Positions 4,241-45,570 are shown, counted from the stretch's first letter. The stretch: 64,000 bases of DNA from Alphaproteobacteria bacterium (GCA_024244705.1 JAAEOK010000042.1:88764-152763), one strand, 5' to 3'. Translations and numbers: made by a program. The notes: generated from the sequence alone by a model not told the origin.

Positions 4241-4327
4241 GACAGGTGTCGTGCTGGCGGTTGGTCGGCGGTCGCGGGCGTTATAAGCCTTGCCGCCGAT
4301 GGCGTCCAGCACACGACGATAACAGCT

Positions 4328-5131: not shown

Positions 5132-5136
5132 TGTCC

Positions 5137-5406
5137 AGAGCCCTTTCTATGAACTCGGAGCCATTCTGACGGAGCGGTTTTGGCCGTCGGGCAGGAGCGA
5201 GGAGCGATGACATGCCGGAGCATATCGAGCGACGAGCGACGCTCACGGCGGGCAAAAGCGCTCGTCCCGTAGGGTTTCCATCCGGCGGCCGACCACGGCG
5301 TCAGCAAGCTTGCCCGATGCTTCGGCATCGCGCTGCTCGAACTTCCTTGCGGACCGGCGCGCCGGATGCGAAACAGAATTGACTCGGGGTTCATAGAAAG
5401 GGCTCT
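5137..5406. mobile_element. 270-bp MITE-like non-autonomous element, copy A (imperfect terminal inverted repeats AGAGCCCTTTCTATGAAC ... GTTCATAGAAAGGGCTCT)
   Basis: About 92% identical to the reverse complement of 29893..30162. Terminal inverted repeats of 17-19 bp seen directly. No transposase ORF. Lies between tatB stop and tatC start. Confidence 0.6.
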
Positions 5407-5851
5407 AGGTTCCGGTCTTGACGTCGGCGCTCGCGACTGAGGCCACGTCCTTCGGTTCGGAATCCGGCTGGTCGGCGTTCGCGACTGAGGCCACGTCCTT
5501 CGGTTCGGAATCCGGCTGGTCGGCGCTCGCTCCTTCGGACGTATTCGAATCACCGTCGGGGATCTTGATCGGCTGCATCGCCTCCTTGATCGACCCGGTC
5601 GGGTCGATCGTGTTCTCGATCTCCTTCTTGATATCGAGCTGGCGCGTGGCATCGAGCTGCTTTTTCATTTCGTCGAGCTCGGTTTCACGGATCATGTCGT
5701 CAAGACCGCGTTGAAAGTCGCGGCCGATCGCGCGCACCTTCCCCGCCCACTGGCCGACCGTACGCAATGCGCGCGGCAAGTCTTTGGGACCGATGATGAT
5801 CACCGCGACCACGATGACCACCAGCATTTCTGTCCAGCCGATATCGAACAT
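5405..5851 (-). CDS. tatB: twin-arginine translocase subunit TatB
   Basis: N-terminal MFDIGWTEMLVVIVVAVIIIGPKDLP TM plus amphipathic helix typical of TatA/B. Long acidic tail. Sits between tatA and tatC. The stop codon TAG spans the junction with the MITE end. Confidence 0.8.
   Translation of the reverse strand: MFDIGWTEMLVVIVVAVIIIGPKDLPRALRTVGQWAGKVRAIGRDFQRGLDDMIRETELDEMKKQLDATRQLDIKKEIENTIDPTGSIKEAMQPIKIPDGDSNTSEGASADQPDSEPKDVASVANADQPDSEPKDVASVASADVKTGT
5433..5528. repeat. perfect-but-one tandem duplication, 2 x 48 bp, inside the tatB 3' coding region (encodes ADQPDSEPKDVASVA[N/S] twice)
   Basis: Direct inspection: gcgactgaggccacgtccttcggttcggaatccggctggtcggcgttc followed by the same 48-mer ending ctc. 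Confidence 0.85.
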
Positions 5852-5900
5852 GGATCCGCTCCTGGACGATAAAACCGCGAGACGCGACCGGGCGCTAAGT

Positions 5901-6131
5901 TCAGGCGGTTTCGTCCTTCTTCACAACGACCGGATCCGGGGCCGCCTCGACCTGCTCCGCCTTGACCGCTTCGGGCTTGTCCTCGTCGTCGGTCAGCTCC
6001 TCGTTCATGCCCTTTTTGAAATTCTTGACGCCCTTCGCGACATCACCCATCACGCGCGGCAATTTGCCGGCACCAAATATGATGAGGACAATGACCAGAA
6101 TAAGGACGACCTGCCATACACCGATACTCAT
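5901..6131 (-). CDS. tatA: twin-arginine translocase subunit TatA
   Basis: MSIGVWQVVLILVIVLIIFGAGKLP plus basic/acidic tail. 76 aa. Confidence 0.85.
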   Translation of the reverse strand: MSIGVWQVVLILVIVLIIFGAGKLPRVMGDVAKGVKNFKKGMNEELTDDEDKPEAVKAEQVEAAPDPVVVKKDETA

Positions 6132-6215
6132 TGAAACTCTCCAAGAAACCTTATAACTGCCGTTTGGCGGCGGATAATCGCAAAATAGCCGCCGTGCCGC
6201 AACGGTCGTGCCTAG

Positions 6216-7301
6216 TTAATGTGGCTCTTCCCGCGAAAAAACAAAGGCTTGATCGACATCCAAGTCGATACCGACGATTTCATTCTCCTGGGGCAGAAAC
6301 TTGCCGGGCACGCGGCTGTGAAGGTGGAGCGATGGCCCGCCTTGCTGGAAAATTTCGAGATGTATCAGGCTGCTACGTCCGATAATACGCGATTCCAGCA
6401 CTTTGGCAGGATACTCCGGACCGCCGTCAGTGACCCGGCTCATACGAATTGCTTCGGGCCGTATCAAGATATCGACCGCCGTACCTTCGGCCAGTCCATC
6501 GCTCGTGATGGTGCCGACCGCCGTGGCTACCCGGCCGTCGGCAACGACGCCCTCGATGCTATTCACCTCGCTGAAGAACTCGGTGACGAAAGCCGAATTT
6601 GGATGAAAATATATCTCGATCGGTGTTCCGATCTGGGCCAGCCGACCGTTTTGCATGACGGCGATTAAATCGGCCATGAACATCGCTTCCTCGGGATCGT
6701 GGGTCACCATCAATGTCGCCGCCTCGCTATCCTTCAACACATGGAAAGCTTGGTCGCGAACTTGCTCCCTGAGACGCTGGTCCAAGCCCGAAAAAGGCTC
6801 GTCCAGCAGCATGACCTTTGGCGATGGCGCCAACGCCCGGGCGAGCGCCACCCGCTGTTGCTGCCCACCGGACAGGGTGTGGGGATAGGCAGCGGAATAA
6901 TCGAGCATGCCAACCTGGTCGAGCACGTCGTCGACACGCGCCTTGCGTTGTGCGGCGGCAATCTTTCGTAATCCGAAAGCGACATTGTCGGCGACGGAGA
7001 GATGCGGAAACAGGGCGTAGTCCTGGAACAGCATTCCGACGCCCCGCTCCTCCGGCGGCAGCAGATGACCGGGTCCCGCCACTTCCCGGCCGCCGATCAT
7101 GATCCGTCCCGATTGCAGGTCCTCGAGCCCCGCTATGAGCCTAAGCAGAGTCGTCTTGCCGCACCCCGACGGTCCAACCAAACAAACCACTTGCCCAGGC
7201 GCCACCGCGAGATGAACGTCATCGGCCGCGACGATGTCGCCGTATCGATGGTCGACGTTTTCGACCACCAAAGCCGGATGGCGCGAATCCAGCTCAGCCA
7301 T
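6216..7301 (-). CDS. ABC transporter ATP-binding protein, Fe3+/spermidine-type importer ATPase (FbpC/PotA-like)
   Basis: Walker A GPSGCGKTT, signature LSGGQQQRV, Walker B LLDEPFS. C-terminal TOBE-like domain. Start at the internal Met (MAELD...) overlapping the permease stop by 8 nt. Confidence 0.8.
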   Translation of the reverse strand: MAELDSRHPALVVENVDHRYGDIVAADDVHLAVAPGQVVCLVGPSGCGKTTLLRLIAGLEDLQSGRIMIGGREVAGPGHLLPPEERGVGMLFQDYALFPHLSVADNVAFGLRKIAAAQRKARVDDVLDQVGMLDYSAAYPHTLSGGQQQRVALARALAPSPKVMLLDEPFSGLDQRLREQVRDQAFHVLKDSEAATLMVTHDPEEAMFMADLIAVMQNGRLAQIGTPIEIYFHPNSAFVTEFFSEVNSIEGVVADGRVATAVGTITSDGLAEGTAVDILIRPEAIRMSRVTDGGPEYPAKVLESRIIGRSSLIHLEIFQQGGPSLHLHSRVPGKFLPQENEIVGIDLDVDQAFVFSREEPH

Positions 7302-26605: not shown

Positions 26606-27406
26606 ATGGTCGATGAAATCGAGGCGGTCGAGAGGGCCGCGGTGGAAGATCTCGGCGCGGCGGCATCCGAGGAACTTCGCGCGGCCCTGAAGATTGAAAG
26701 CGGAGCCCTTGGGTCGGCCCACTGTTTGATTGCCGGCGGCCTGCCCGCTTCGGCGATCGTCATCAACCGAACGATCGGCCTTGGCCTTACGAAACCCGCC
26801 GACCGCGACTTGGTGGCGGACATGGTCGCCCGTTATCGCGCCGCCGGTGCCGCGCGCTATTTCGTCCACGTCCATCACCAAGCGCAACCCGACGAACTTC
26901 CGGGATGGCTCGGTGAGTTCGGCCTAAAACCGACACGCGGGTGGGCCAAATTCAGGCGCGGACGCGAAGCGCCGCCGGCGGTCGAGACGACGCTCGATAT
27001 TCGACCGGCAACCGCCGACGCCTTCGGACGCATCGAGGCCGACGCCTTCGATGTCGGATCGGCGGGCGCGCCGTGGCTGGCGCGACTCGTCGGCCGTCCC
27101 AATTGGCACATCTTCATGAGTTTCGCGGGGGACGAGCCCGCCGGCGCCGGAGCGCTGTTCGTCCACGACGGCATCGGCTGGTGCGATTGGGGCGCGACTG
27201 CTCCCGATTTCCGCGGCCGCGGCGGCCAGAGCGCCGTCTTGCGCGCGCGCATCGTGGCGGCCCTCGACCTCGGATGTCGCATGCTCGTCACCGAAACCGG
27301 CGAAGAAGTCCCCGGCGACCCCCAGCACTCGTACAAGAATATCGTCAAAATGGGCTTCGAGGAGGCTTACGTGCGGGCCAACTACGCGCTGCCGAAATCA
27401 GTCTGA
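26606..27406 (+). CDS. GNAT family N-acetyltransferase (two-lobed)
   Basis: Acetyl-CoA-binding motif region (RGRGGQSAVLRARIVAAL). N-terminal start uncertain. Confidence 0.6.
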   Translation: MVDEIEAVERAAVEDLGAAASEELRAALKIESGALGSAHCLIAGGLPASAIVINRTIGLGLTKPADRDLVADMVARYRAAGAARYFVHVHHQAQPDELPGWLGEFGLKPTRGWAKFRRGREAPPAVETTLDIRPATADAFGRIEADAFDVGSAGAPWLARLVGRPNWHIFMSFAGDEPAGAGALFVHDGIGWCDWGATAPDFRGRGGQSAVLRARIVAALDLGCRMLVTETGEEVPGDPQHSYKNIVKMGFEEAYVRANYALPKSV

Positions 27407-28078
27407 TCGAGCGGGAAGGATGGGTTCGATCTCGTCCGCGACAAGGGCCCGCTTCACCGCCGGACGGGATTCGATTCGGGCCACCGTTTGGGCGGCATGG
27501 ATGAACCGATCGAAATCGGGCATTTCATCGGCGTGCCACCGGCCACGGACCTCGAAGTACCAGCGCGCAAGCACATAAAGGTAAATGTCGGCGATCGAGT
27601 AATTGATCCCCAGCACGAACGGCCCATCTTTGAGGCGAGCATCGATTTCGGACCAATAGCGGACGATCCAGCTGATGCCGCGATGACGAATCCGGTCGGC
27701 GTCGGATTCATCGGTCGAATAGCGTGCCGGATAATAGGCCATCATGTAGGCGCCCTGGACCATTTCGGCCATGTCGAACATATGGCGGTAGCACAGGCCG
27801 CGAGCGGTCGAGCCCACGGCCGGGCACAAGGCCGTCGAGGGGTGCTTGTCGGCCAAATGGAACAGGATCGCCGCCGAGGGATAAACGACAATATCGCCGT
27901 CGACCAGCGAGGGAATCTTGCCATGCGGGTTTTGCGCCAAATACCAATCGGGTGGCGCCGGCTTGAGCTCGACCTCCACCACCTCATATGTGGCATCGAC
28001 CTCTTCGAGAGCGATCCGCGCGACCAGGGCCGTCGATTCGTGGGTGTACGATCGTGTCGTGTAATAGAGCGTGTACAT
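27398..28078 (-). CDS. glutathione S-transferase family protein
   Basis: N-terminal thioredoxin-like GST fold (MYTLYYTTRSYTHES..., KIPSLVDGDIVVYPSAAI) and C-terminal alpha domain. Confidence 0.75.
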   Translation of the reverse strand: MYTLYYTTRSYTHESTALVARIALEEVDATYEVVEVELKPAPPDWYLAQNPHGKIPSLVDGDIVVYPSAAILFHLADKHPSTALCPAVGSTARGLCYRHMFDMAEMVQGAYMMAYYPARYSTDESDADRIRHRGISWIVRYWSEIDARLKDGPFVLGINYSIADIYLYVLARWYFEVRGRWHADEMPDFDRFIHAAQTVARIESRPAVKRALVADEIEPILPARSD

Positions 28079-28134: not shown

Positions 28135-29859
28135 TCAGATATCGGCATAGACGTGCGTTTCCGCGGTCGCCCCCGGATGAGTGACCGCGCCCTTATAGGC
28201 CGGCCCAACCGTCTGGGCATAACGCCACAATGCGCCGGATTGATAATTGTTCGTCCGCGCTGACCAAGCTCGCCGCCGTGCCGCGAATTCGTCCTCCGAC
28301 AAATCGACGTTCAGGGTTCCGGCTTCCGCATCGATGTGGATCATGTCGCCGTCCTTGAGCATTCCGATCGGCCCCCCGACCGCCGCCTCGGGCCCGACAT
28401 GGCCGATGCACAGGCCACGTGTGGCGCCGGAAAAGCGGCCATCAGTAATGAGCGCAACCTTCTGTCCCAATCCGCGTCCGATGAGTGCCGAGGTCGTGGC
28501 CAGCATCTCGCGCATGCCCGGTCCGCCTTTCGGCCCTTCATAGCGAACTACCATGACATCGCCGTCTTTGATCTGGTCCGTCAGCACCGCGCTGAAAGCG
28601 TCCTCCTCGCGTTCGAAAACCCGCGCCGGGCCCGAATGCTGCAGCTGAGTCAACCCGGCAATCTTTACGATCGCCCCCTCGGGCGCCAGCGACCCCTTGA
28701 GGCCAACGACCCCGCCGGTCGAAGACAACGGGTTGCTGACGGGCCGAATGACGTCTTGATCGGTCGGAAACACCACCCCCTCAAGGTTCTCGGCGATTGT
28801 CTTGCCGGTCACGGTTAGACAATTGCCGTCGAGATATCCACCATCAAGCAGCGTCTTCATCAAGACCGGCACTCCGCCGACCTCGTACATGTCCTTGGCA
28901 ACGTACCGCCCGCCGGGCACGAGGTCTGCAATATAGGGGGTCTTGCGAAAGATCTCGCAAACGTGCTCAAGGTCGAATTCGATGCCGGCCTCGTTCGCGA
29001 TAGCCGGAAGATGAAGCCCAGCATTCGTCGAACCGCCGGACGCAGCGACGATAACCGCCGCGTTCTCGAGCGCCTCTCTGGTGACGATGTCGCGCGGCCG
29101 GACCCCGCTGGCGAGCAGAGCCATGACTGCTTCGCCCGACGCCTCGGCGTATTGGTCACGACTCTCGTAGGGAGCGGGCGCTCCCGCCGAGCCCGGCAGC
29201 GCGAGGCCGATGGCTTCGGAAACACAGGCCATCGTATTGGCGGTGAATTGGCCGCCGCACGATCCCGCCGACGGGCACGCCACCGCTTCGAGTTCATGGA
29301 GCTCGTCATCGCTGACCTTGCCTGCCGCATGGCCGCCCACGGCCTCGAAGACATTGATCACGGTCACGTCCTTGCCCTTGAACTGGCCGGGCAGGATCGA
29401 GCCGCCATACATGAAGACCGAGGGCACGTTCAGCCGTACCATCACCATCATCAGCCCGGGCAGCGACTTGTCGCAGCCAGCGAGGCCGACCAGCGCGTCG
29501 TAGCAATGACCGCGCATCGTGAGCTCGGTCGAATCGGCGATGACCTCTCGCGACACCAGCGATGATTTCATGCCTTCATGACCCATGGCGATGCCGTCGG
29601 TGACGGTGATGGTGGTAAATTCTCTCGGCGTTCCGCCGGCGCGGTCGACCCCGCGTTTCACGGCCTGCGCCTGGCGCGCCAGCGCGATGTTGCACGGCGC
29701 CGCTTCGTTCCACGTCGTGACCACGCCGACCAAGGGCTGGTAGATCTCCGCTTCCTTGAGTCCCATGGCATAAAGGTACGAGCGATGCGGCGCGCGCTCC
29801 GGCCCGACCGTGGTATGGCGGCTGGGTAAATTCGATTTGTCGTACCGGGTTTCACTCAT
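28135..29859 (-). CDS. ilvD: dihydroxy-acid dehydratase
   Basis: IlvD/EDD family motifs ([29 protein letters not shown]). 574 aa. Confidence 0.9.
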
Positions 29860-29892
29860 GGCAACATGTCCTCGGCATTGGGTTCCGGATAC

Positions 29893-30162
29893 AGAGCCCT
29901 TTCTATGAACTCCGAGTCAATTCTGTTTCGCATGTGGCGCGCCGGTCCACAAGGAAGCACGCGCAGCGCGATGCAGAAGCATCGGGCAAGCTTGCTGACG
30001 CCGTGGTCGGCGGCCAGATGGAAACCCTACGGGACGGGCGCTTTTGGCCGCCGAGGGTGTCGCTCGTCGCTCGATATGCTTCGGCATGTCGTCGCTCCTC
30101 GCTCCCGCCCGACAGCCAAAACCGCTCCGTCAGAATCGCTCTGAATTCATAGAAAGGGCTCT
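29893..30162. mobile_element. 270-bp MITE-like element, copy B (inverted relative to copy A). Located 33 bp upstream of the ilvD start codon.
   Basis: About 92% identity to the reverse complement of 5137..5406. Same terminal inverted repeats. Confidence 0.6.
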
Positions 30163-30260
30163 GGCGGCAAGATAGCGATGGCGACCCGCCGGTGCCAGCG
30201 CAATTCGGCCCTGAATCATTTTCCTGTCGATCGGAGGGCGGTCGGCATTCGATTGGCGAT

Positions 30261-31079
30261 CTAAGGTACCGGCAAATCCCGCAGGAACTTGTCGGTGTCC
30301 GCGTCGGCCGGAAACATGGTCTCGGTCCGCAGTTCCTGAAGCGTGACATCGTTTGGCGTGCCAAAGGTGGAGATCAAGGTGAAAAACCGGAGCACATTGC
30401 CATTCTTCTCTATATCGATCGCGATCATCGGATCGGTTTCCGCATCCGGCTCGAAGGCCTGCCACTGCGCCGGCACCCCGGGATAGCTCAACAGCTCCCC
30501 GATGAGCCGCACGGCCTCGGCGTCGTTTCCCGCTGCCGCCGTCTCGCGTTGCAGCCGTACTATGATCCCGGCGGCGACAGTCTCCCAATTCACGATCGCG
30601 GGACGGAGTCCGTTCGGGTCAAAAAAGGTCTTGAGCAGATTCGGCCGTGTCCCGTCCGCCGCCGCCAGCGGCATATCGAGGAATCCGATCAACCGTTGAA
30701 TGGCGCCGTTCGCCATGATCAGGTTCCACAGCCGGTCGATAACGACGGCCGGATAGGGCTCGTGATTGTCGAGCAAAAAACGGAGCGCCCTGGCGACCGG
30801 GGCCATCTCCGGCACCGACAGGTCGCGCGCCGGAAACGCCTCCGCATAGCCCGCCGCATTCAACAGCGTATTGCAATGGCGCAACGGCACATCCAGCACC
30901 GCGGCAAGATGCACCACCATGTCGCGGCTCGGCTTTGACCGCCCGGTTTCGATGAAGCTGAGATGACGCGCGGAGATATCGGCTTCGGTCGCGAGACGGA
31001 GCTGGCTCAGGCCGCGACGCCGTCGCCAATAGCGAAGTTGGCTGCCGAAGGTCGAAATAGACGGGGCGGCCATAGTCAT
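30261..31079 (-). CDS. XRE-family HTH transcriptional regulator with MmyB-like C-terminal ligand-binding domain
   Basis: N-terminal HTH (LRYWRRRRGLSQLRLATEADISARHLSFIETGR) and MmyB-like C-terminal region. Divergent from the downstream membrane-protein gene. Confidence 0.7.
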   Translation of the reverse strand: MTMAAPSISTFGSQLRYWRRRRGLSQLRLATEADISARHLSFIETGRSKPSRDMVVHLAAVLDVPLRHCNTLLNAAGYAEAFPARDLSVPEMAPVARALRFLLDNHEPYPAVVIDRLWNLIMANGAIQRLIGFLDMPLAAADGTRPNLLKTFFDPNGLRPAIVNWETVAAGIIVRLQRETAAAGNDAEAVRLIGELLSYPGVPAQWQAFEPDAETDPMIAIDIEKNGNVLRFFTLISTFGTPNDVTLQELRTETMFPADADTDKFLRDLPVP

Positions 31080-31292
31080 CGTCCTGGTTTCTTGCTTATA
31101 CAGATTCCCTGAATCGATCTTGACGCAACGGCTGCGCCGAGGCCATTACGTTAGAGGTAATTGGTCTGAATCTTCCTGAGGTCGAGCGCCCCGCGCAATG
31201 ATACACCGCAGTATCGACACGTCGACGGGAAACCATTTGAAAGCGCCTTACGTCCGGCGCAGTTTCGAATTCGACCGAAGGTTTTCGAGGCG

Positions 31293-33113
31293 ATGGCACG
31301 ATGCTTTCGCCGACGTACCCACATCGGGCGGCGCATGATCCTCGGAATAGTCCTTCTTTTCCTGCTTGTCGTCGGATCCCTCGGACTGGGGATACTTTCA
31401 ATCCGCGGACTGGGTCGTATCGGTGTGCTCACCCGGGCGCAGCCGCCTTCAATCGGCGAAACCGGATTGATGGGTCTCCTGACCCTCGCTTTGATCGCGC
31501 TTACAGTTCATTTCGCAATCCCTTTGGGTGGGCCCGTGCCCTGGATTGTCATCGGCGCCGGCGTCGCGGCCGCGGTCGTGTATTGTCGGTCGTTGTACAA
31601 GGCCTTCTCCCCGTCGCCGGTGGCCGGTCTCGCTTTGTTGCTCGCGTTGATCGTCATATTCGCGATTTACATCCCCGACCGCCCCCTAACATATGACAGC
31701 GGGTTTTATCATCTACAGGCGATGATGTGGATGCGGGACGAGCCGGTGATTTTCGGCTTGGCCCAAATCCACGGCCGATTCGGGTTCAATTCCGTGTGGC
31801 TCGGTGTCGGCGCCTTGGCCTGGCTGCCTGGATTCGGTGTGCGCGGCATTTTTTTGGCCGAAGCCCTGCCGGTCTTATTCGTGTTGCACGCGCTCATGCA
31901 GCATGTGCTGGCGGCGGAGAGATGGCGGGCGCTCCCCCTGTCGACGAGTTTCGCCGCCCTGACGCTCATATTCTTGCTGCTCCGCGGCAACTACTTTCTC
32001 ATCACCGGCATAACGTCGACCGACAATGTCACCGCCATGCTTGTCGTAATGTCCGTGTACCTGTTCCTTCGCACCGTCGATAGGGGCTGTTTCGGGAACG
32101 CGGAAGAGATATCGGACTTTCGGCTGGATGCGGTAATTCTGGCGTTGTTGTCGGTGATGACGATATTGGTAAAGCTCGCGCTCGTGCCGGTATTGCTATT
32201 GCCGATCGGTATCGTTGCGGCATCGTGGATCGGCCGCCTTCCCAAGCTGCCCGTGTTTCGACTGGGCCTGGTGGTCGGCGTCATCGGAATGCTGTGGTCG
32301 TTGCGGGCCTTCGTGCTCACCGGATGCTTGGTCTATCCGTCGGCACCGACATGCTTTCACACCCTCCCATGGGCGGTGCGCGCCCTCGACGTTCAGCTCG
32401 AATCCACCCATATCCACATGTTCCCGCGATTTCTCAGCAATGAGCCGCTCTTGCATCGCATGTACGGCGACAATTGGGCATGGGTTCCGACATGGTTCGA
32501 TATTATCTGGAACACTCGCGTGCCGAGACTGAGCAAAATGCCGAAAGCCATCGCAATTGTCACGGCGATCGCCGTCCTGGTTCGTGCTCTAGAGCTCGTT
32601 GTTCGACCACCGCCGAGGTCGAGAACATCCTCGGGAGATAGACGGTTGGCTTGGGCCGCCCTGTTCTGGTTGGGCTTGACGATCCTGGTTTGTATCGCGT
32701 TCTGGTTCCTGCTGGGTCCTCAGCCGCGATACATAGTGGGCCCGTTCGTGGCCTTGGCCGTCTTGCCGGGTACGATGATTCTGTGGCCCGGCGTCGCCGA
32801 TTTCAATATCGGGCGCGGTGGGCGCGCCGTGATCCTCCCCTTCTACGCCCTGGTTTTTGCATTTTTCGTAACCACCCTGGACCTTCGATGGCGAAGCTGG
32901 GCGCCGGACCCGGCCGAATTGCGCCCCAGTGTCGATCGCCACACAACGATCGACGGCGTGACCATTTTCGAGCCCCGCAGCGGACAACAATGCTATATGG
33001 CGCCTAAACCTTGTGCTCCCGACGTCAATCCCTATCTGGTTTTCGACCGCTTAGGCCCATATCTGATGATCCGAAACGAGGCTCCGGACGGCTTCGCCGT
33101 TCCACGGACATGA
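31293..33113 (+). CDS. large polytopic membrane protein of unknown function (at least 13 TM, possible GT-C-fold glycosyltransferase-like)
   Basis: Hydrophobicity pattern only. No recognised motif. Start may be the Met at codon 15. Confidence 0.5.
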   Translation: MARCFRRRTHIGRRMILGIVLLFLLVVGSLGLGILSIRGLGRIGVLTRAQPPSIGETGLMGLLTLALIALTVHFAIPLGGPVPWIVIGAGVAAAVVYCRSLYKAFSPSPVAGLALLLALIVIFAIYIPDRPLTYDSGFYHLQAMMWMRDEPVIFGLAQIHGRFGFNSVWLGVGALAWLPGFGVRGIFLAEALPVLFVLHALMQHVLAAERWRALPLSTSFAALTLIFLLLRGNYFLITGITSTDNVTAMLVVMSVYLFLRTVDRGCFGNAEEISDFRLDAVILALLSVMTILVKLALVPVLLLPIGIVAASWIGRLPKLPVFRLGLVVGVIGMLWSLRAFVLTGCLVYPSAPTCFHTLPWAVRALDVQLESTHIHMFPRFLSNEPLLHRMYGDNWAWVPTWFDIIWNTRVPRLSKMPKAIAIVTAIAVLVRALELVVRPPPRSRTSSGDRRLAWAALFWLGLTILVCIAFWFLLGPQPRYIVGPFVALAVLPGTMILWPGVADFNIGRGGRAVILPFYALVFAFFVTTLDLRWRSWAPDPAELRPSVDRHTTIDGVTIFEPRSGQQCYMAPKPCAPDVNPYLVFDRLGPYLMIRNEAPDGFAVPRT

Positions 33114-33223
33114 TCCGTTCCCAGGTCCAAAATACCGCAATTTGAATGCCTCGGCGGCTCATTGACCCGGGCGCGGCGAGGCCGATAGAGTGCCGCATCA
33201 ATTCAACCAGAAAGGGGCCGCAA

Positions 33224-34468
33224 ATGCCCGCCGACGTCAGTCTCGACATCGAATTTGTTCGCGCGCAGTTTCCGCCCTTGGCGGATGGGTGGGCCTTTCT
33301 CGAAAACGCCGGCGGCTCTTATGTTCCTGGTTCGGTGATCGACAGTACCGTCGCTTATATGAGCGAATCTCAGGTGCAGCCGGGCATCGTCGGCGCGTCG
33401 AAATTGGCATCCGAGAGAATTGCCGCTGGGCAGAATGGAATCGCGACGGCGCTTGGCGCCGAGGCCGACGAAGTCATCATCGGTCCTTCGACCTCAATGA
33501 ACGTCTACGTCTTGTCGCACGCCGTTCGACCCTGGCTCCGGCCAGGCGACGAGGTGATCGTGACCAATCTCGACCATGAAGCCAACAACACGCCGTGGCG
33601 GCGCCTAGAAGAGATTGGTGTTACCGTCAAGGAGTGGTGCTTCAACCCCGATACGGGGGGACTCGATTCGGATGCCCTGAGCGCACTGCTTACCGACCGA
33701 ACCCGATTCGTGTGTTTCTCCGCGTGCTCGAATATTACCGGCACGATCAACGATGTCGCCGGCCTTACGGCGCTTGCTCACGAGGCCGGTGCCGTCGTCT
33801 GTGTCGATGCGGTCGCCCTCGGATCCCATCGGGCGATTGACGTCAAGGCGCTCGATGTCGACTTTCTCGCTTGCAGCATTTACAAGCTCTATGGCCCGCA
33901 CGTTGCCGCCCTTTATGGGAAGCGTGAGCATTTCCTGCGGGCCAAAGGCCAAAACCACTATTTCTTCGGCGAGGATACCATTCCGCTGAAGCTCAATCCG
34001 GGCGGCGTGAACCACGAATTCACGGCCGCGCTCAAGGGTGTCATCGATTATTTCGACAGCGTTTACGCGTACCATTTCATGACCCCGGCAAACGACGTTC
34101 AAGCCCGCGTCCGCGCCGTCTATGGGTTGTTCGAGGATTTCGAGGAACGGCTGGTCACGCCATTCGTCGACTATCTGGAGAGCACCCCTTCGATCCGCCT
34201 GCTCGGCCTGATGACCGCCGATAAGACGCGGCGGGTGCCAACTTTCTCAATCGACGTGCCGGGCAAGGACCTGGCCGCGATACAGGCCATGGCCGCGGCG
34301 CGGCAGGTCAATATCGGCCTTAGTCACTTCTACGCGCCGCGCGCACTCGAAGGCTACGGCCTCGATGCCGAACGCGGCGTGCTGCGCATCAGCATGGTGC
34401 ATTACAACAATGCCGACGACGTGCAACGGGCCATAGCGGCCATCGACGAGGCGCTTTCGGCTGGCTAG
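33224..34468 (+). CDS. aminotransferase class V-fold PLP-dependent enzyme (cysteine desulfurase-like)
   Basis: PLP-lysine context ACSIYKLYGPH. Class V fold features (VTNLDHEANNTPW, FSACSNITG). Start at the internal Met MPADVS. Confidence 0.75.
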   Translation: MPADVSLDIEFVRAQFPPLADGWAFLENAGGSYVPGSVIDSTVAYMSESQVQPGIVGASKLASERIAAGQNGIATALGAEADEVIIGPSTSMNVYVLSHAVRPWLRPGDEVIVTNLDHEANNTPWRRLEEIGVTVKEWCFNPDTGGLDSDALSALLTDRTRFVCFSACSNITGTINDVAGLTALAHEAGAVVCVDAVALGSHRAIDVKALDVDFLACSIYKLYGPHVAALYGKREHFLRAKGQNHYFFGEDTIPLKLNPGGVNHEFTAALKGVIDYFDSVYAYHFMTPANDVQARVRAVYGLFEDFEERLVTPFVDYLESTPSIRLLGLMTADKTRRVPTFSIDVPGKDLAAIQAMAAARQVNIGLSHFYAPRALEGYGLDAERGVLRISMVHYNNADDVQRAIAAIDEALSAG

Positions 34469-34549
34469 ACGCCGAGGATTTCCGTTGTCGTTGAACCGCC
34501 ACATGCGTGCGGCCGCCGGCGCCGAATATCGGCGCGATATTGCAGGGTG

Positions 34550-35335
34550 TCAGGGTCGCGCGCCGGCCGCCTCGAGCAGGGCCGCGATCGTCGTATAGCC
34601 GCGTTGACGGGCCAGGCTGAGCGGCCGTGTCCCGCGCCCGTCGGCGAGGTCGATATCGGCGCCGGCCTCGATCAACGATCGAACGATCGCGATATGATTC
34701 GGCCCGCCGTCGCCAAGAACGATTGCCTCGATCAAGGCCGTCCAAGCAAGATTGTTGACGTGGTCGAGAGGTGCGCCGCCATCGATGAGGGCCTGCACGA
34801 CATCGACATGGCCGAGGTGCGATGCGGCGATCAATGCCGTGCCCTGGTAAGGGCTGGTGACAAGTCCGGTATCGGCCCCCGAGGCGATGGCGAGATTGAC
34901 CATGTCGATATCGTCGATGACCGCGGCGATGGTGAGCACATCGTATTGATCCCCATCGAGGGCATTGATATCGGCGCCGGCTGCGATCAGCGCCTGGGCG
35001 GCACCGAGATCCCGTTGATAGCCGGCGATCATCAACGGTGTTCGGCCATGCCCATCGCGCACGTCAACACCGTCTCCCGCGGACACCAAACGCTGGATCT
35101 CGCTGATATCGCCGGCTATCGCGGCCTTGTGGAGGCCGTCATAGGCCGAGACTTCATGCGATGACGGTGCAGTCTGAATTTGTTGATACCCGGAAAACGG
35201 CTCGATCACGGTCGAGCCTACCATTTGCCCGAAGTAAGGCGAAGCCAGGACCTCTCCACACAAGGAGCAGGCGACAACGGTTGCGGCGAACAAGCCCGAT
35301 ATTCGGTCGAGTCGATTGTTGGATGTCCACCTCAT
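34550..35335 (-). CDS. ankyrin-repeat protein, probable lipoprotein/periplasmic
   Basis: Lipobox-like TVVAC after a signal sequence. At least 5 ankyrin repeats (GRTPLMIAGYQRDLGAAQALIAAGADINALD etc.). Confidence 0.75.
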   Translation of the reverse strand: MRWTSNNRLDRISGLFAATVVACSLCGEVLASPYFGQMVGSTVIEPFSGYQQIQTAPSSHEVSAYDGLHKAAIAGDISEIQRLVSAGDGVDVRDGHGRTPLMIAGYQRDLGAAQALIAAGADINALDGDQYDVLTIAAVIDDIDMVNLAIASGADTGLVTSPYQGTALIAASHLGHVDVVQALIDGGAPLDHVNNLAWTALIEAIVLGDGGPNHIAIVRSLIEAGADIDLADGRGTRPLSLARQRGYTTIAALLEAAGARP

Positions 35336-36183
35336 TGACCGACCTGCTGGTCTGCCGATTTGACGCTATCAAGGCGCACATTCACGGCGCCCGCAGGATT
35401 GTGATTTGGCCGCCGCCAGCGTCTTAGGGATATCGGGCGTGCCCATCTCGAAATCCAACGCAGCTTGGGACGCGGGCGGAGCCAATCGTGCAACCTATCG
35501 ATATCGACGCGCGCGGGCCGGACGATCGGACCGTTGGCGAGACGATGGCTGCGTCCGCTCAGACCATTCTTCTTGCATAGCAAACTGAAGATCGACTGGT
35601 CGTGACGATGGTCACGAAAGCCGGCCATGTTGGATTTGCCACATTCATTTTCGGCATCGGACAAGATTCTCGGGTCCAGGGCGAACCGCAGCCATTCGGC
35701 GACAAAGGTGCGACTAAATTCGTTGCAAACGAATATCAGTAATCCTGTCTCGATCTGCTTGTCGTCATGGAATTCCGCGCGGTCGCAATCCATCAGAATG
35801 AAGGCGTCGCGCTTCGTCCAGGTCCGCTCGGTACCGGTATCGCAAACGAATCCAAGCACGCCGGGAGTCTCGTCGCAACATAGGCGCACAAGGGGTTCCA
35901 CCGATCGAATAAACACGGAACCGGAATCGCAATAGATCAGAACGTCGCCCGGTTCCGCCTTCTCGAGCGCATCGGCAATGATATAAGGTTTCCACAACCA
36001 ATAGCCGGCGCCCCGATCCTGGTCCAAGACCTCCTTGTTCTTGCGTCGGAAGGCCTCATCGAGATCACCGGCGCCATAAGACCAACAAAGGTCGATACGG
36101 CCGGCCGTTAGCCCTGTCCACGTATTTCGAACCTGGGATTTCAAGAACGGGCAGTCGGCATAATTGATGAGGACGGTTTTCAA
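35332..36183 (-). CDS. hypothetical protein, possibly nucleotide-sugar-dependent glycosyltransferase-like (GYWLWKPYII motif). Lower local GC. Arg/Trp-rich C-terminus.
   Basis: ORF with an ATGA overlap onto the ankyrin gene start. Motif recognition is weak. GC visibly lower between roughly 35600 and 36180. Confidence 0.4.
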   Translation of the reverse strand: MKTVLINYADCPFLKSQVRNTWTGLTAGRIDLCWSYGAGDLDEAFRRKNKEVLDQDRGAGYWLWKPYIIADALEKAEPGDVLIYCDSGSVFIRSVEPLVRLCCDETPGVLGFVCDTGTERTWTKRDAFILMDCDRAEFHDDKQIETGLLIFVCNEFSRTFVAEWLRFALDPRILSDAENECGKSNMAGFRDHRHDQSIFSLLCKKNGLSGRSHRLANGPIVRPARVDIDRLHDWLRPRPKLRWISRWARPISLRRWRRPNHNPAGAVNVRLDSVKSADQQVGQ

Positions 36184-36209: not shown

Positions 36210-38921
36210 TTAAGAGTTGGGTAAACGCCCCAGCGCCTCTACCAACCGATTCCGCGTGCGTTCCGCCTCTTCCCGCCGCTCGCGTTGGGTGGCGACGACA
36301 TCGGTCGGCGCCTTGGCCAGGAACCCCTTATTGCCAAGTTTCTTATCGATCTTGTCGATTTCGCCGCCGAGCTTCTCGATCTCCTTCCGCAACCGGGCCG
36401 ATTCCGCAGCGACATCGATGAAGTCGCCAAGCGATAGAGCAAATACCGCACCGTCCTTGACGATCTGCACCGCGTCACCCGGCAGCTTGTTATCGAACTC
36501 GATCTGAGCCAGTCCGCCTAGTCGTCGGATCCGCTCGCGATGGCCCTCCAATCGCGCCGAGAGAATCGGATCCGGATCCTGTACCGTGAGGGGAACCTTG
36601 GCCTTGGCCGGCACATTCATCTCCGACCGCACGGCGCGAATTTCACTGACGATCGATACGATGGCCTCTATTTCGGCGGCGGCGACGCCATCCACGAGAT
36701 CCGGCGCATAGTCCGGCCAATCTGTCGTAATCAGTAGCCCATCGCGCTTGGGTCCCAGTTCGCCCCACAGCTCTTCGGTAATGAACGGCATAAGGGGATG
36801 CAGCATGATCAGAAGTTGGTCGAGCGCCCACCCCGCGGTCGCCCGCGTCTCGTCATCGATGACACCGCTGCGGTCGTCGGGTTTGATGAACTCGATGTAC
36901 CAGTCACAAAAGCTGTGCCAAATGAAATGATAGAGTTCGTTGGCCGCATCATTGAATCGATAGGCCTCCATCGCGGTCCGCAGCCGTTCTTCCAAGCTCG
37001 CGATTCCGCTGACGACCCATCGGTTGACGGCCTGTGTCGCCGATGCGGGATCGAATGCGGGGTTCGATAGGCAGCCGTTCATCTGACAGAATCGCGATGC
37101 CTGCCACAGTTTCGTGGCGAAGTTGCGATAACCTTCGATGCGGGTTTCCGCCAACTTTACGTCGCGACCGGGCACCGCGAGAGCCGCCAGGGTAAACCGC
37201 AGCGCGTCGGAACCAAAACTGTCGATGATGTCTAGCGGATCGACGATATTGCCCCGGGATTTCGACATCTTCTGACCCTTGGCGTCCCGCACCAGGGCAT
37301 GGATGTAGACGGTGTGAAATGGCACATCACCCATGAAATGGACGCCCATCATCATCATCCGTGCGACCCAGAAGAAGATGATATCGAACCCGGTCACCAG
37401 CACGTCACCGGGATAGTAGCGGGCCAATTCGGGGGTCTCCTCGGGCCAGCCGAGGGTCGAAAACGGCCATAACGCGGAAGAGAACCAGGTGTCGAGCACA
37501 TCGGGGTCGCGCTCGAGCGCCACCTTTTTTCCGTAGTGCGCGGCGGCGGCGGCTTCAGCCTCCTGCTCGGAGTATTCGACGAAGATGTGCCCGTCGGGTC
37601 CGTACCAGGCCGGGATCTGGTGGCCCCACCAAATCTGGCGCGACACGCACCATGGCTGAATATTCCGCATCCACTCGAAGTACGTATTTTCCCAGTTCTT
37701 AGGCACAAAAACCGTGCGTCCCTGCTCGACCGCCTCGATACACGGTCCAGCCAGCGTTTTCGCATCGACGAACCATTGATCGGTCAGCCACGGCTCGATC
37801 GGAACGCCTGATCGGTCGCCATAGGGCACGACATGGATCGGTTCCTCGATTTTTTCGAGCAGGCCGCGCGCCGTCATCTCGGCGACAATTATCTCCCGCG
37901 CTTCATATCGGTCGAGACCGCGGTAGGCCTCGGGAACCCAGTCGATGCACGGCGTAGACTCGTCATCGTCGCTGTCGCCCAGTCGAAATGTCGTCTCGGC
38001 GTTCTCGGGTCCAATAACCCGCGCCTCGGAATCGAAGATGTTCAGCGCCGCCAGATTGTGGCGCCGGCCAACTTCGAAATCATTGAAATCATGGGCCGGG
38101 GTGATCTTGACGGCGCCACTGCCCTGCTCGGGATCGGCGTATTCGTCGGCAACGATGGGGCAGCGATAGCCGGTGATGGGTTGAAGCGCGAACTTGCCGT
38201 GAAGATCGGCATAGCGCGGGTCGTCGGGATGGACGGCAACCCCGGTGTCACCGAGCATCGTCTCCGGGCGCGTTGTGGCAACGGTGACAAAATGTCCGTC
38301 CTCGCCTTCGATCGGATAATTGAAATACCACAGCTTGCCCTTGATCTCTCGCTGCTCGACTTCGAGGTCGGAGATCGCGGTATGCAGTTTCGGGTCCCAG
38401 TTGACCAACCGCTTGGCGCGATAGATCAAACCCTGCTTGTGGAGATCGACGAAGACCTTACGCACCGCACCGGACGGCCCCTCGTCCATGGTAAAGCATT
38501 CTCGCGGCCAGTCGGCCGACGCACCCAAGCGACGCAACTGCTGCAATATCGTGCCGCCGGAGTGCGCCCGCCAATCCCAGACCTTGGCAACAAAACCCTC
38601 TCGGCCGAGATCGTGCCGCGTCTTCCCTTCCTCGGCGAGATTGCGTTCGACGACCATCTGGGTCGCGATGCCGGCATGGTCCGTTCCCGGTTGCCACAGG
38701 GCATCGCGGCCGCGCATCCGGTAATAGCGGATCAGCACGTCTTGGATGGTGAACGTAAGCGCGTGGCCGATATGGAGGCTCCCAGTCACGTTGGGAGGCG
38801 GCATTATGATTGTATAGGGCGTCTTTTCGGACCCGAGATGCGCCGCAAAGGCACCATCCGCTTCCCACCGGTCGTAGAGCTTTGCCTCGACCTCGGCCGG
38901 CCGATAGGATTTGTCCAGCAT
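36210..38921 (-). CDS. valS: valine--tRNA ligase
   Basis: HIGH motif (PPPNVTGSLHIGHAL), KMSKS (KMSKSRGN), editing domain and C-terminal coiled coil. 903 aa. Confidence 0.9.
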   Translation of the reverse strand: MLDKSYRPAEVEAKLYDRWEADGAFAAHLGSEKTPYTIIMPPPNVTGSLHIGHALTFTIQDVLIRYYRMRGRDALWQPGTDHAGIATQMVVERNLAEEGKTRHDLGREGFVAKVWDWRAHSGGTILQQLRRLGASADWPRECFTMDEGPSGAVRKVFVDLHKQGLIYRAKRLVNWDPKLHTAISDLEVEQREIKGKLWYFNYPIEGEDGHFVTVATTRPETMLGDTGVAVHPDDPRYADLHGKFALQPITGYRCPIVADEYADPEQGSGAVKITPAHDFNDFEVGRRHNLAALNIFDSEARVIGPENAETTFRLGDSDDDESTPCIDWVPEAYRGLDRYEAREIIVAEMTARGLLEKIEEPIHVVPYGDRSGVPIEPWLTDQWFVDAKTLAGPCIEAVEQGRTVFVPKNWENTYFEWMRNIQPWCVSRQIWWGHQIPAWYGPDGHIFVEYSEQEAEAAAAAHYGKKVALERDPDVLDTWFSSALWPFSTLGWPEETPELARYYPGDVLVTGFDIIFFWVARMMMMGVHFMGDVPFHTVYIHALVRDAKGQKMSKSRGNIVDPLDIIDSFGSDALRFTLAALAVPGRDVKLAETRIEGYRNFATKLWQASRFCQMNGCLSNPAFDPASATQAVNRWVVSGIASLEERLRTAMEAYRFNDAANELYHFIWHSFCDWYIEFIKPDDRSGVIDDETRATAGWALDQLLIMLHPLMPFITEELWGELGPKRDGLLITTDWPDYAPDLVDGVAAAEIEAIVSIVSEIRAVRSEMNVPAKAKVPLTVQDPDPILSARLEGHRERIRRLGGLAQIEFDNKLPGDAVQIVKDGAVFALSLGDFIDVAAESARLRKEIEKLGGEIDKIDKKLGNKGFLAKAPTDVVATQRERREEAERTRNRLVEALGRLPNS

Positions 38922-42002: not shown

Positions 42003-42076
42003 GGCCGGGTGGCAGAGTGGTTATGCAGAGGACTGCAAATCCTTGTACGTCGGTTCGATTCCGGCCCCGGCCTCCA
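42003..42076 (+). tRNA. tRNA-Cys (anticodon GCA)
   Basis: Cloverleaf folded by eye: acceptor GGCCGGG/CCCGGCC, anticodon loop CUGCAAA, T-loop GGTTCGATTCC, encoded CCA. Confidence 0.85.
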
Positions 42077-45494: not shown

Positions 45495-45570
45495 TCCCCG
45501 GTAGCTCAGTTGGTAGAGCGGGTGGCTGTTAACCACCATGTCGCTGGTTCGAGTCCGGCCCGGGGAGCCA
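45495..45570 (+). tRNA. tRNA-Asn (anticodon GUU)
   Basis: Acceptor TCCCCGG/CCGGGGA, anticodon loop CUGUUAA, GGTTCGAGTCC T-loop, CCA encoded. Followed by a GC-rich segment plus T7 run (likely terminator). Confidence 0.9.

Follow-up and report, generated by a model that had tools for sequence, protein, structure and literature searches.

The DNA analysed here, called the window below, is a stretch of 64,000 nucleotides from an alphaproteobacterium, and the interval of interest (positions 30261-36183) lies between the housekeeping genes ilvD and valS. The five open reading frames of the original prediction were all present at the positions and on the strands that it gave, and together with their flanks the locus contains the following features.

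28135-29859, minus strand: ilvD (dihydroxy-acid dehydratase) ORF, the left backbone flank
29892-30163: MITE-like repeat of ~272 bp bounded by terminal inverted repeats of 25 nt, lying between ilvD and the regulator gene
30261-31079, minus strand: MmyB-like regulator of 272 aa, with Pfam matches to MLTR_LBD (1e-35), HTH_3 and HTH_31; the public annotation holds an identical 272-aa protein
31080-31292: divergent intergenic region of 213 bp between the regulator and membrane protein genes, with presumed promoters
31293-33113, plus strand: LIC_10190/DUF8201 polytopic membrane protein, GT-C fold; the ORF has 606 aa, but the protein probably starts at M15 (31335) and has 592 aa
33146-34468, plus strand: class-V (fold-type I) PLP enzyme of the Fgm3/UstD/VC1184 type; 440-aa ORF, Aminotran_5 at 1e-47
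34519-34535: hairpin GCGCCGA-ATA-TCGGCGC (7-bp stem, 3-nt loop) between the convergent PLP enzyme and ankyrin genes, read from the sequence
34550-35335, minus strand: ankyrin-repeat protein; 261-aa ORF matching Pfam Ank_2 (1e-23), Ank_4 and Ank
35332-36183, minus strand: member of a GT-A-fold family that has no family model, 283 aa; its TTG start lies 26 bp beyond the end of valS
36210-38921, minus strand: valS (valyl-tRNA synthetase) ORF, the right backbone flank, followed by a DUF2497 gene

Several details of this layout (lengths, gaps and an overlap) hinge on the choice of start codon, because the public annotation departs from the longest ORFs. A terminator scan did not call the hairpin because it lacks a T-run, and Rfam and tRNA scans gave no match inside the interval. 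The inverted repeat I2 of the MITE-like element is 92% complementary, and its arm pattern has four matches where 0.02 are expected by chance. A second copy lies at 5136-5407; when aligned, the two copies are closely similar along their full length, with copy B reversed.

The assignment of the first gene to the MmyB-like regulators was confirmed by a match to PF17765 (MLTR_LBD; 123.7 bits against a cut-off of 26.3) over residues 95-269, preceded by a helix-turn-helix domain at residues 15-67 (PF01381, 42.5 bits in Pfam). Regulators of this family are usually transcribed divergently from their target gene (PMC3406030), and judging by the arrangement this one probably controls the membrane protein gene from the shared 213-bp region. 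That region holds a single weak sigma-70-like match, at 31225-31198 on the minus strand; inverted repeats of at least 8 nt, such as an operator-like palindrome, are absent from it.

A defence system and a phage origin were also considered for the interval and rejected. PADLOC returned generic domain matches only (the HTH, the N-terminal domain of the PLP enzyme to SspA/DndA, and the ankyrin repeats) and none for the membrane protein or the 283-aa protein, and neither of these two proteins matched a PHROG family.

Glycosyltransferase folds and the adjoining ankyrin gene

The membrane protein has the predicted polytopic layout, with ~14 hydrophobic segments in its 606 residues, and the guess of a GT-C-like arrangement was borne out when it was assessed for a polytopic GT-C fold. 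It does not, as had been thought, lack a known motif: it matches the NCBIfam model NF047510 (LIC_10190 family) with 143 bits over residues 19-482 (cut-off 100), and Pfam DUF8201 (PF26626) is precomputed on the records of the public protein and its relatives. Our own Pfam scan, run with a copy that probably does not include the PF26626 model, gave no match for the protein or for ten relatives. The public start is M15 (592 aa), where homologues also begin. Residue D135 is invariant in 50 family sequences and lies in a loop that is predicted to be periplasmic by the positive-inside rule, the topology being self-consistent; by the same prediction the conserved C345/C354 pair is periplasmic, as is the C-terminal domain with C567/C574. 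The C-terminal tail of 75 residues carries two family-invariant cysteines, and three longer members of the family end in a malectin domain.

Relatives of the membrane protein were collected by an exhaustive search of representative sequences, the nearest being 35% identical. Just three genomic contexts were informative, the other contigs being too short. In one (L004) the DUF8201 gene stands between a GT2 gene and a sugar SDR gene, and the GT2 is itself preceded by an Aminotran_3 gene; in another (L089/L090) it is accompanied by SDR, GT2 and NDP-sugar dehydrogenase genes in a locus that also encodes DegT, Bac_transf, PglD and an acyltransferase; in the third (L101) GtrA lies directly upstream. 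The GT2 proteins of the first two contexts have AglJ, ArnC, PpgS and Dol-P-hexose transferases as their best matches, all below the curated cut-offs. The membrane protein can be read as a putative GT-C-fold glycosyltransferase, the contexts of its family pointing to polyprenyl-phosphate sugar donors. By analogy with GtrC or ArnT, it would take its sugar from a polyprenyl-phosphate carrier and add it to a glycan of the envelope. A tblastn search of DUF8201 against plasmids gave no match, and no papers on LIC_10190 or DUF8201 came up in a full-text literature search. The 64-kb window encodes no homologue of the neighbouring GT2, SDR, NDP-sugar dehydrogenase or GtrA; of these, the donor genes (GT2 synthase and GtrA flippase) would be expected beside a GT-C enzyme, and their absence from the window counts against that role.

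The suggestion that the 283-aa protein is a glycosyltransferase was strengthened by its predicted structure. The AF2 model (pLDDT 87, pTM 0.85) has a GT-A fold, with Foldseek matches to LARGE1, BoGT6a, XXYLT1, glycogenin and LgtC at E values of ~3e-6 to 2e-4, a probability of 1.0 and a TM-score of ~0.5 against BoGT6a and LARGE1. There were 170 PDB matches at E <= 1e-3, and the top 50 of these 170 are glycosyltransferases, mostly of the GT8/GT6 type. At the level of sequence, no match was obtained in Pfam or NCBIfam (for both, even at E <= 10), nor in PADLOC or PHROG; PDB searches with the protein or its profile returned chance matches only, and an hhalign comparison with LgtC (its sequence checked against 1ss9/1g9r) was not significant (E 0.12 over 27 columns).

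The GYWLWKPYII motif noted originally is present and nearly invariant in the family, whose conserved motifs are LINYA, GxGYWLWKPY, YxDSG, TKRD and HRHDQSI. The place of a DxD motif is taken by Y84-x-D86-S-G88, with an invariant D86 and, in at least 90% of sequences, a glycine at the third position. The family comprises 1051 homologues, with 475 loci in species-representative genomes. The members closest to the window protein (58% identity) lie in a DAO/TusA/MscS context; others belong to polysaccharide loci that also carry GT2, epimerase, GT4, ABC transporter and GT11 genes. Tandem paralogues seemed to be in excess, but this was an artefact of ORF clustering, tblastn giving one copy per locus. 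We put the chances at about even that this is a new CAZy-level GT-A family with D-S-G instead of DxD, and rank that proposal above the reading of the interval as a functional module, discussed below.

The reported dip in GC content is real but modest, the gene having a GC content of 0.565 where the window averages 0.611 (sd 0.025 in 850-bp windows, 4th percentile). It is confined to this gene, whose GC3 is 0.651 compared with 0.71-0.77 in its neighbours. Together with a patchy phyletic spread and the lack of the gene at the syntenic position of relatives, this composition supports the proposed horizontal acquisition for the GT-A gene, which was probably acquired in this way; for the ankyrin gene, which is normal in composition and gives no compositional sign of foreign origin, the proposal was not upheld.

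The ankyrin gene had further been described as encoding a lipoprotein whose start overlaps the stop codon of the GT-A gene (ATGA). The overlap exists in the sequence, and the long version from the ATG has a basic n-region, a hydrophobic core and a lipobox-like V-V-A-C23; however, both the overlap and the lipoprotein features vanish with the public start, M38 at 35224 (224 aa). The intervening N-terminal extension of 37 codons has a GC3 of 0.68 and looks coding, and if the long start at 35335 is used the protein may be exported.

The PLP enzyme and the ilvD-valS backbone

The PLP enzyme had been called cysteine-desulfurase-like, a description that holds for the fold but not for the catalytic apparatus. 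Desulfurases (NifS, IscS, SufS and CsdA) form a persulfide on a catalytic cysteine that follows the PLP lysine at a distance of ~100 residues or more. Here the PLP lysine is K247, equivalent in the alignments to the S-G-H-K lysine of CsdA and to that of Fgm3 and UstD, and the last cysteine is C243, with none in residues 248-440. Matches to desulfurases cover the N-terminal two-thirds only, ending at about residue 262, whereas the best PDB matches are full length: Fgm3 (9x4u; 232 bits, 37.7% identity) and UstD (7mkv; 173 bits). The C-terminal domain alone matches only the Fgm3 and UstD families in the PDB. A full-length match was also obtained to TIGR01976 (VC1184 type; residues 34-432), at 320.8 bits below the cut-off of 352.35. 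By its sequence, then, the enzyme resembles aldolase-type enzymes such as Fgm3 and UstD and not a desulfurase. The desulfurase label for VC1184-type proteins is misleading, because they lack the catalytic cysteine and group with these aldolase-type enzymes.

The public start of the PLP enzyme is M27 at 33224 (414 aa), which has a good Shine-Dalgarno sequence and widens the gap after the membrane protein gene from 32 to 110 bp; a promoter-like match precedes it at 33162-33191. In five contigs from three metagenomes the PLP gene adjoins ilvD. In three of them (L093, L095 and L097) the ilvD gene lies directly upstream on the same strand and is 74-85% identical to that of the window, which is inverted relative to its PLP gene; the other two (L094 and L096) hold only end fragments of ilvD. 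The gene order in L094 is ilvD-PLP-DUF3105-valS-DUF2497, with valS convergent with the PLP gene and 65% identical to the valS of the window. The closest relatives of the PLP enzyme (72-73% identity) are flanked by a DUF4328 gene and a Zn-dependent alcohol dehydrogenase-like gene, the latter named from sequence only. Overall, the PLP gene belongs to the backbone, independent of the membrane protein, and is probably expressed from a promoter and ribosome-binding site of its own.

One system or a mosaic

According to the original prediction, the five genes form a single cassette under the control of the MmyB-like regulator, dedicated to envelope modification or specialized metabolism. On such a reading the GT-A protein would act in the cytoplasm and the GT-C protein in the periplasm, the PLP enzyme would supply an unusual amino-acid or amino-sugar substituent, and the ankyrin lipoprotein would serve as periplasmic partner. 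The genes are indeed close together, the regulator is divergent from the membrane protein gene at a distance of 213 bp, as is usual for MmyB (PMC3406030), and an aminotransferase of a different PLP class (Aminotran_3) lies two genes from one DUF8201 relative. Moreover, since the two formerly unassigned proteins both have glycosyltransferase folds and are encoded 2.2 kb apart, they may share a pathway. However, in 104 independent related loci (1.33 Mb) no two of the five are found together; relatives with the order ilvD-PLP-(DUF3105)-valS carry none of the other four genes; and the closest GT-A relatives occupy another conserved context that has no ankyrin gene. Within the window the genes fall into two convergent units, the right-hand one starting 26 bp after valS, the composition of the GT-A gene is unlike that of the rest, and the GT2 and GtrA partners expected of a GT-C enzyme are missing. 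We regard the single cassette as highly improbable, and are just as sceptical of its variant, a lineage-specific module in which an MmyB-type sensor of a lipid or small molecule would switch on an orphan GT-C enzyme, the GT-A protein, PLP enzyme and ankyrin lipoprotein contributing to a new amino-acid- or sugar-based envelope decoration; such a glycan-modification module would be newly assembled.

Smaller groupings fare slightly better. A true two-gene operon of the DUF8201 and PLP genes, in which the membrane protein would attach to an envelope polymer, or help to export, a non-standard (for instance gamma-hydroxy) amino acid made or trimmed by the PLP enzyme, is favoured by their common strand, by the gap of 32-110 bp in which no terminator was called, so that co-transcription by read-through is possible, and by the membership of Fgm3 and UstD in secondary-metabolite pathways (PMC10055224). 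We nevertheless hold it to be very unlikely: no DUF8201 gene adjoins any of seven relatives of the PLP enzyme (56-73% identity), five of which follow ilvD instead; 11 DUF8201 loci have no class-V PLP neighbour; and the M27 start brings its own Shine-Dalgarno sequence and promoter-like match. Enzymes of the GT-C superfamily, to our knowledge, transfer sugars and not amino acids. The GT-A and ankyrin genes might likewise constitute a cassette acquired together, for example a glycosyltransferase acting with an ankyrin protein that is exported and serves as adaptor or in immunity. The ATGA overlap would imply translational coupling if the long start is real, the 37-codon extension is signal peptide-like with VVAC and has a GC3 that looks coding, and both genes are missing from the syntenic position in L094. 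Against this stand the public start, which removes the overlap, the difference in GC3 (0.65 for the GT-A gene, 0.71 for the ankyrin gene), the differing predicted compartments (cytoplasm and periplasm, respectively), and the result that none of 84 GT-A family loci, closest relatives included, has an ankyrin homologue within ~8 kb. This pairing, too, is unlikely.

Because the five genes are never found together elsewhere, the interval is best described as a patchwork, its elements inserted separately between the housekeeping genes. With no pair co-occurring, and with relatives that carry ilvD, the PLP gene and valS but not the regulator, membrane protein, ankyrin and GT-A genes, we conclude with good confidence that it is a mosaic of an ilvD-PLP-valS-DUF2497 backbone and two unrelated additions, and not one system. 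The backbone is conserved and recurs in related alphaproteobacterial contigs. One addition comprises the divergent regulator and DUF8201 genes, placed between ilvD (inverted here) and the PLP gene, its left edge marked by the MITE-like repeat; the other comprises the gene for the GT-A protein, a soluble, cytoplasmic type of glycosyltransferase, followed by the ankyrin gene, both inserted just downstream of valS. The two look like separate, lineage-specific additions.

One locus (L103) at first seemed to offer a second instance of the MmyB-DUF8201-PLP arrangement. It was rejected as independent evidence: it is the sole near-identical locus, and its 99.97% DNA identity to the window indicates the same organism.

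Counting against the mosaic is the sparse sampling of the lineage, to which the distance of the nearest DUF8201 relative attests; the genes may be co-conserved within it. Although co-conservation was not found elsewhere, the membrane protein and the 283-aa protein cannot strictly be assigned to well-characterized, unrelated families, because both families are uncharacterized and both have glycosyltransferase folds.

The interval holds no new system, and its value is for annotation. The DUF8201/LIC_10190 family (~2,300 clusters at 50% identity) becomes readable as a family of GT-C glycosyltransferases, and a GT-A family distinguished by an unusual D-S-G motif, and covered by neither Pfam nor NCBIfam models, emerges from at least 475 species of bacteria and archaea, among them cultivable Azospirillum and Flavobacterium. 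The locus also illustrates that a divergent regulator with unannotated neighbours is weak evidence for a system when synteny support is lacking.

Comparison with known systems

The regulator shares with the MltR/MmyB family (PDB 3pxp; PMC3406030) an XRE-type HTH joined to an MLTR ligand-binding (PAS-like) domain, and divergent transcription from its neighbour over a short intergenic region. It differs in that the neighbour is a GT-C membrane protein and not an SDR/MDR or antibiotic-pathway gene.

The membrane protein, when compared with GT-C enzymes of the ArnT/GtrC type, has a C-terminal domain predicted to be periplasmic and an invariant acidic residue within a predicted periplasmic loop, a candidate counterpart of the catalytic aspartate of ArnT or PglB; its family resembles their systems in adjoining, elsewhere, genes for GT2 polyprenyl-phosphate sugar synthase-like proteins, GtrA and sugar SDRs. 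Unlike these enzymes, it shows no family membership at the sequence level (8-15% identity in structural alignments), has three extra N-terminal transmembrane segments before the D135 loop, and ends in a small, cysteine-bearing beta-strand domain. The three-component GtrABC and Arn loci also include a GT2 and a small flippase (GtrA or ArnE/F), which the window does not.

The GT-A family shares with retaining glycosyltransferases of the GT8/GT6 type, among them the xylosyltransferase domain of LARGE1, an N-terminal strand (LINYA), an invariant aspartate (D86) that ends a hydrophobic strand at the DxD position, and a frequent location in polysaccharide loci; the GxGYWLWKPY signature before the aspartate motif sets it apart. 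D86 pairs with D103 of LgtC in one hhalign segment that is itself non-significant, and, as a motif reading, the invariant D195-Q196 recalls D188-Q189 of LgtC.

Exported bacterial ankyrin-repeat proteins exist, for example Pseudomonas aeruginosa AnkB and Bdellovibrio Bd3460. The ankyrin protein of the window is like these in being small and consisting entirely of ankyrin repeats behind a possible signal peptide, but its matches to effector and defence models are at the domain level only.

The PLP enzyme is closest to Fgm3, the retro-aldolase of the fusaoctaxin pathway, and to UstD, the decarboxylative aldolase of the ustiloxin pathway. Within the motif S-x-Y-K-L-Y-G-P it has, like Fgm3 (KVY) and unlike UstD (KLF), a tyrosine (Y249) two residues after the lysine, the position of the proposed general base of Fgm3 (PMC10055224). 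Fgm3 and UstD are both fungal, whereas the enzyme described here is bacterial, and its gene lies outside any peptide natural-product cluster, next to ilvD and valS.

Layout and start codons of the five genes

The original prediction grouped five genes lying between ilvD and valS into one block linked to an MmyB-like regulator. Its positions for all five match the ORF table, from which the lengths below are taken.

Genes of the interval and its flanks
28135-29859, minus strand: ilvD, left flank of the five genes
30261-31079, minus strand: MmyB-like regulator gene, 272 aa
31293-33113, plus strand: membrane-protein gene, 606 aa
33146-34468, plus strand: PLP-enzyme gene, 440 aa
34550-35335, minus strand: ankyrin gene, 261 aa
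35332-36183, minus strand: predicted GT-A gene, 283 aa, TTG start
36210-38921, minus strand: valS, right flank of the five genes

In the public annotation the window genes carry locus tags GY791_067xx (a MAG annotated 'Alphaproteobacteria bacterium', 184-kb contig), and three of the five start later than the longest ORFs do.

Alternative start codons
Membrane protein: M1 at 31293 (longest ORF); M15 at 31335 (public, 592 aa)
PLP enzyme: M1 at 33146 (longest ORF); M27 at 33224 (public, 414 aa)
Ankyrin protein: M1 at 35335 (longest ORF); M38 at 35224 (public, 224 aa)

For the ankyrin gene, the choice of start decides whether a signal peptide with lipobox is present and whether the gene overlaps its neighbour. 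Two features count in favour of the longer start: the 37-codon N-terminal extension looks like a signal peptide with a lipobox-like V-V-A-C23, and its GC3 resembles that of coding sequence. The predicted lipoprotein and the ATGA overlap with the 283-aa gene can thus both be read in the sequence, but they hold only with the longer start; because the public start is M38, both rest on an unverified start codon.

The regulator is a clear MmyB/MltR-family protein (MLTR_LBD, 123.7 bits, and HTH_3). Members of this family are usually transcribed opposite to their putative target over a short intergenic region (PMC3406030), an arrangement that the 213-bp divergent region between the regulator and membrane-protein genes fits; no palindromic operator was found in these 213 bp. 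With its public start, the PLP gene lies 110 bp from the membrane-protein gene, has its own Shine-Dalgarno sequence (GAAAGGGG) upstream of M27 and is preceded by a promoter-like match at 33162-33191. The GT-A and ankyrin genes start 26 bp after valS on the same strand, and this unit and the PLP gene converge over a small hairpin. Putative transcription units were drawn from these gaps, the Shine-Dalgarno sequence, the hairpin and the promoter-like match.

The 283-aa gene has a GC content of 0.565, at the 4th percentile of the window (mean 0.611, s.d. 0.025, 850-bp windows), and a GC3 of 0.651 against 0.71-0.77 in its neighbours, in keeping with the proposal of a foreign, low-GC gene. The ankyrin gene is normal in composition by the same check.

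Synteny of the five genes

The five proteins were compared by tblastn with 104 independent fetched loci (1.33 Mb): 84 of the GT-A family, 11 of DUF8201 (the family of the membrane protein), seven with PLP relatives and two weak matches from the PLP scan. Two of the 11 DUF8201 loci are known through the Pfam DUF8201 record only, not through tblastn, and the two weak PLP-scan loci fall below the tblastn threshold. No pair among the five genes co-occurred in any of the 104 loci. In five contigs from three metagenomes (L093 1940-4925, L095, L097, L094 1-1393 and L096; PLP identity 56-61%) ilvD is immediately upstream of the PLP gene, in the same orientation and ~58 bp away, which suggests that ilvD-PLP is a conserved pair in related alphaproteobacterial contigs. 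The order in L094 is ilvD(+) - PLP(+) - DUF3105(-) - valS(-) - DUF2497(-), and it matches the right flank of the window, where valS and DUF2497 are followed by a gene that is TolC-like by sequence only. In the window an inversion and an insertion have separated ilvD from the PLP gene: relative to this conserved backbone ilvD is inverted, the MmyB and DUF8201 genes have come in between the two, and the GT-A and ankyrin genes occupy the place of the relatives' DUF3105. Around the nearest PLP relatives, at 72-73% identity, the neighbours are the gene of a DUF4328 membrane protein and one that resembles Zn-dependent alcohol dehydrogenases (assigned from sequence alone). The nearest GT-A relatives, at 58% identity, have a different conserved context in common, DAO - GT-A - TusA - MscS, without an ankyrin gene.

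On these grounds the single five-gene block does not stand; it is a juxtaposition of unrelated genes. A functional link peculiar to this lineage is very improbable, and it keeps the slight probability it has because the lineage is without close sequenced relatives and the informative DUF8201 contexts number three only. Outside the window, the MmyB-DUF8201-PLP arrangement was met in one fetched contig, L103, which was discarded as a second instance: its DNA is 99.97% identical and therefore comes from the same organism. What is new here is modest: two uncharacterised families can be annotated at the level of their fold, and the label of the desulfurase-like enzyme is corrected.

The ilvD/MmyB gap is filled by a MITE-like element of ~272 bp with 25-nt terminal inverted repeats (CAGAGCCCTTTCTATGAAyTC...), and this copy borders the non-syntenic segment. 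A second copy, in opposite orientation, is closely similar over the full length. The arm pattern has four matches against 0.02 expected by chance, and an Rfam scan of the element gave no family match.

Other features of the window
5136-5407: second copy of the MITE-like element
29892-30163: MITE-like element in the ilvD/MmyB gap
42003-42076: tRNA-Cys(GCA)
45495-45570: tRNA-Asn(GTT)

Apart from these two tRNA genes, neither of which adjoins the five-gene interval, no RNA gene was detected in the window. Elsewhere, a 266-aa ORF (26606-27406, plus strand, GC3 0.77) has no Pfam match and overlaps by 9 bp the end of a convergent gene (27398-28078, minus strand) that looks GST-like.

The GT-A and DUF8201 families

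The 283-aa protein contains the GYWLWKPYII motif that had marked it as a possible glycosyltransferase. It has no match in Pfam, NCBIfam, PADLOC or PHROG, permissive thresholds included, and none in a PDB sequence search; none of its 1051 homologues carries a Pfam domain, and all source names shown for them are 'hypothetical' or 'uncharacterized'. The family has 475 confirmed loci in species-representative genomes, with more than one copy in several, and is spread over many Azospirillum species, Flavobacterium, planctomycetes, cyanobacteria, Lachnospiraceae and archaea. Its conserved motifs are L-I-N-Y-A, G-x-G-Y-W-L-W-K-P-Y, Y-x-D86-S-G, T-K-R-D and H-R-H-D195-Q196-S-I. The structural model (pLDDT 87) matches GT-A glycosyltransferases, chiefly of the retaining GT8/GT6 type (LARGE1, BoGT6a, XXYLT1, XXT1, glycogenin and LgtC; E 3e-6 to 2e-4, TM-score ~0.5), so that a glycosyltransferase-like fold is predicted. 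A profile comparison with LgtC was not significant; its sole aligned segment pairs D86-S-G88 with LgtC D103-I-D105. Polysaccharide loci are often the location of relatives: among 80 genomic loci the recurrent neighbours are GT2 (15), NAD-epimerase (11), GT4 (10), ABC exporter (7) and GT11 (7), and one homologue, P0006, lies near GNT-I, GT25, Anp1, GT10, GT1 and GT2 genes.

A class-I aminoacyl-tRNA synthetase gene was seen on the strand opposite to the GT-A gene in 13 loci, 10 from Azospirillum and three from unclassified proteobacterial MAGs (L027, L028, L039, L041, L044, L046, L048, L050, L057, L058, L060, L063 and L064). It lies ~1.4 kb upstream of the GT-A gene in 12 of them (at about 4000-6550) and ~3.4 kb upstream in L064 (1973-4555). 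This synthetase is 23% identical to the window ValRS, and its N-terminus looks IleRS-like. The GT-A gene of the window comes after valS; the two neighbourhoods probably reflect lineage synteny and coincidence.

The membrane protein, thought to lack any known motif, is not an orphan. It matches NCBIfam NF047510 'LIC_10190 family membrane protein' at 143 bits (cut-off 100), Pfam DUF8201 is recorded for it in precomputed tables, and an exhaustive search gave 2301 relatives at E <= 1e-3, the nearest just 35% identical. Its AlphaFold model is confident (pLDDT 90.2, pTM 0.93), and the top Foldseek matches are ArnT, Pmt4, ALG12 and ALG9, with weak E-values, consistent with the GT-C-like layout originally suggested. 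If translation starts at M15, a 14-TM topology is self-consistent by hydropathy and the positive-inside rule: every Arg/Lys-rich loop is predicted to be cytoplasmic, whereas the loops that contain D135 and C345/C354 are predicted to be periplasmic, as is the C-terminal domain with its C567 and C574. In a 50-sequence DUF8201 alignment D135 (within Y-D-x-G-x-Y-H-L-Q), Y139, G344, C345, P349, W397, W401, C567 and C574 are invariant; conservation is 90% or higher at D244, K294 and C354.

Neighbourhoods of DUF8201 relatives support a lipid-linked sugar donor. The order in L004 is Aminotran_3 - GT2 - DUF8201 - SDR; in L089/L090 the DUF8201 gene converges with SDR - GT2 - NDP-sugar dehydrogenase, and the wider locus holds DegT, Bac_transf, a PglD-like acetyltransferase and an acyltransferase. 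Both GT2s match best AglJ, ArnC, PpgS and dolichyl-phosphate hexose transferases, all below curated cut-offs, and in L101 a GtrA-family gene lies 25 bp upstream of the DUF8201 gene. In three members of ~700 aa (P0169, P0194 and P0204) the TM core is followed by a malectin (carbohydrate-binding) domain at the C-terminus; the extensions of the long members P0174, P0187 and P0211 have no Pfam match. From these neighbour genes and malectin domains, together with the model and topology, we infer that the family is a GtrC/ArnT-like third component of polyprenyl-phosphate-sugar glycan-modification systems. Partner genes of the DUF8201 protein are missing from the 64-kb window. Downstream of the closest relative, P0122, a gene at L003 1912-2913 has a 333-aa product that matches neither Pfam nor NCBIfam and whose H-V-R-R-G-E, in our reading, may recall the HxRRGD of GT11-type fucosyltransferases.

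The PLP enzyme

Of the earlier label 'cysteine-desulfurase-like', the fold class V is retained (Aminotran_5, 1e-47) and the desulfurase part is corrected. The best NCBIfam model, TIGR01976 (VC1184-type 'cysteine desulfurase-like'), scores 320.8 bits, below its cut-off of 352.35, and true desulfurases align only at about residues 38-262. The PLP lysine is K247, and no cysteine comes after C243; the cysteine on which NifS/IscS/SufS enzymes form the persulfide is therefore absent, and the sequence is not that of a cysteine desulfurase. Fgm3, whose substrate is 4-hydroxy-arginine, and UstD, a decarboxylative aldolase, are the best full-length PDB matches (9x4u, 232 bits, 37.7% identity; 7mkv, 173 bits) and the sole matches when the C-terminal domain is searched alone. 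Fgm3 is a retro-aldol cleavage enzyme (PMC10055224). The K-L-Y of the window enzyme keeps the tyrosine that stands two residues past the lysine in the K-V-Y of Fgm3, whereas UstD has phenylalanine at this position.
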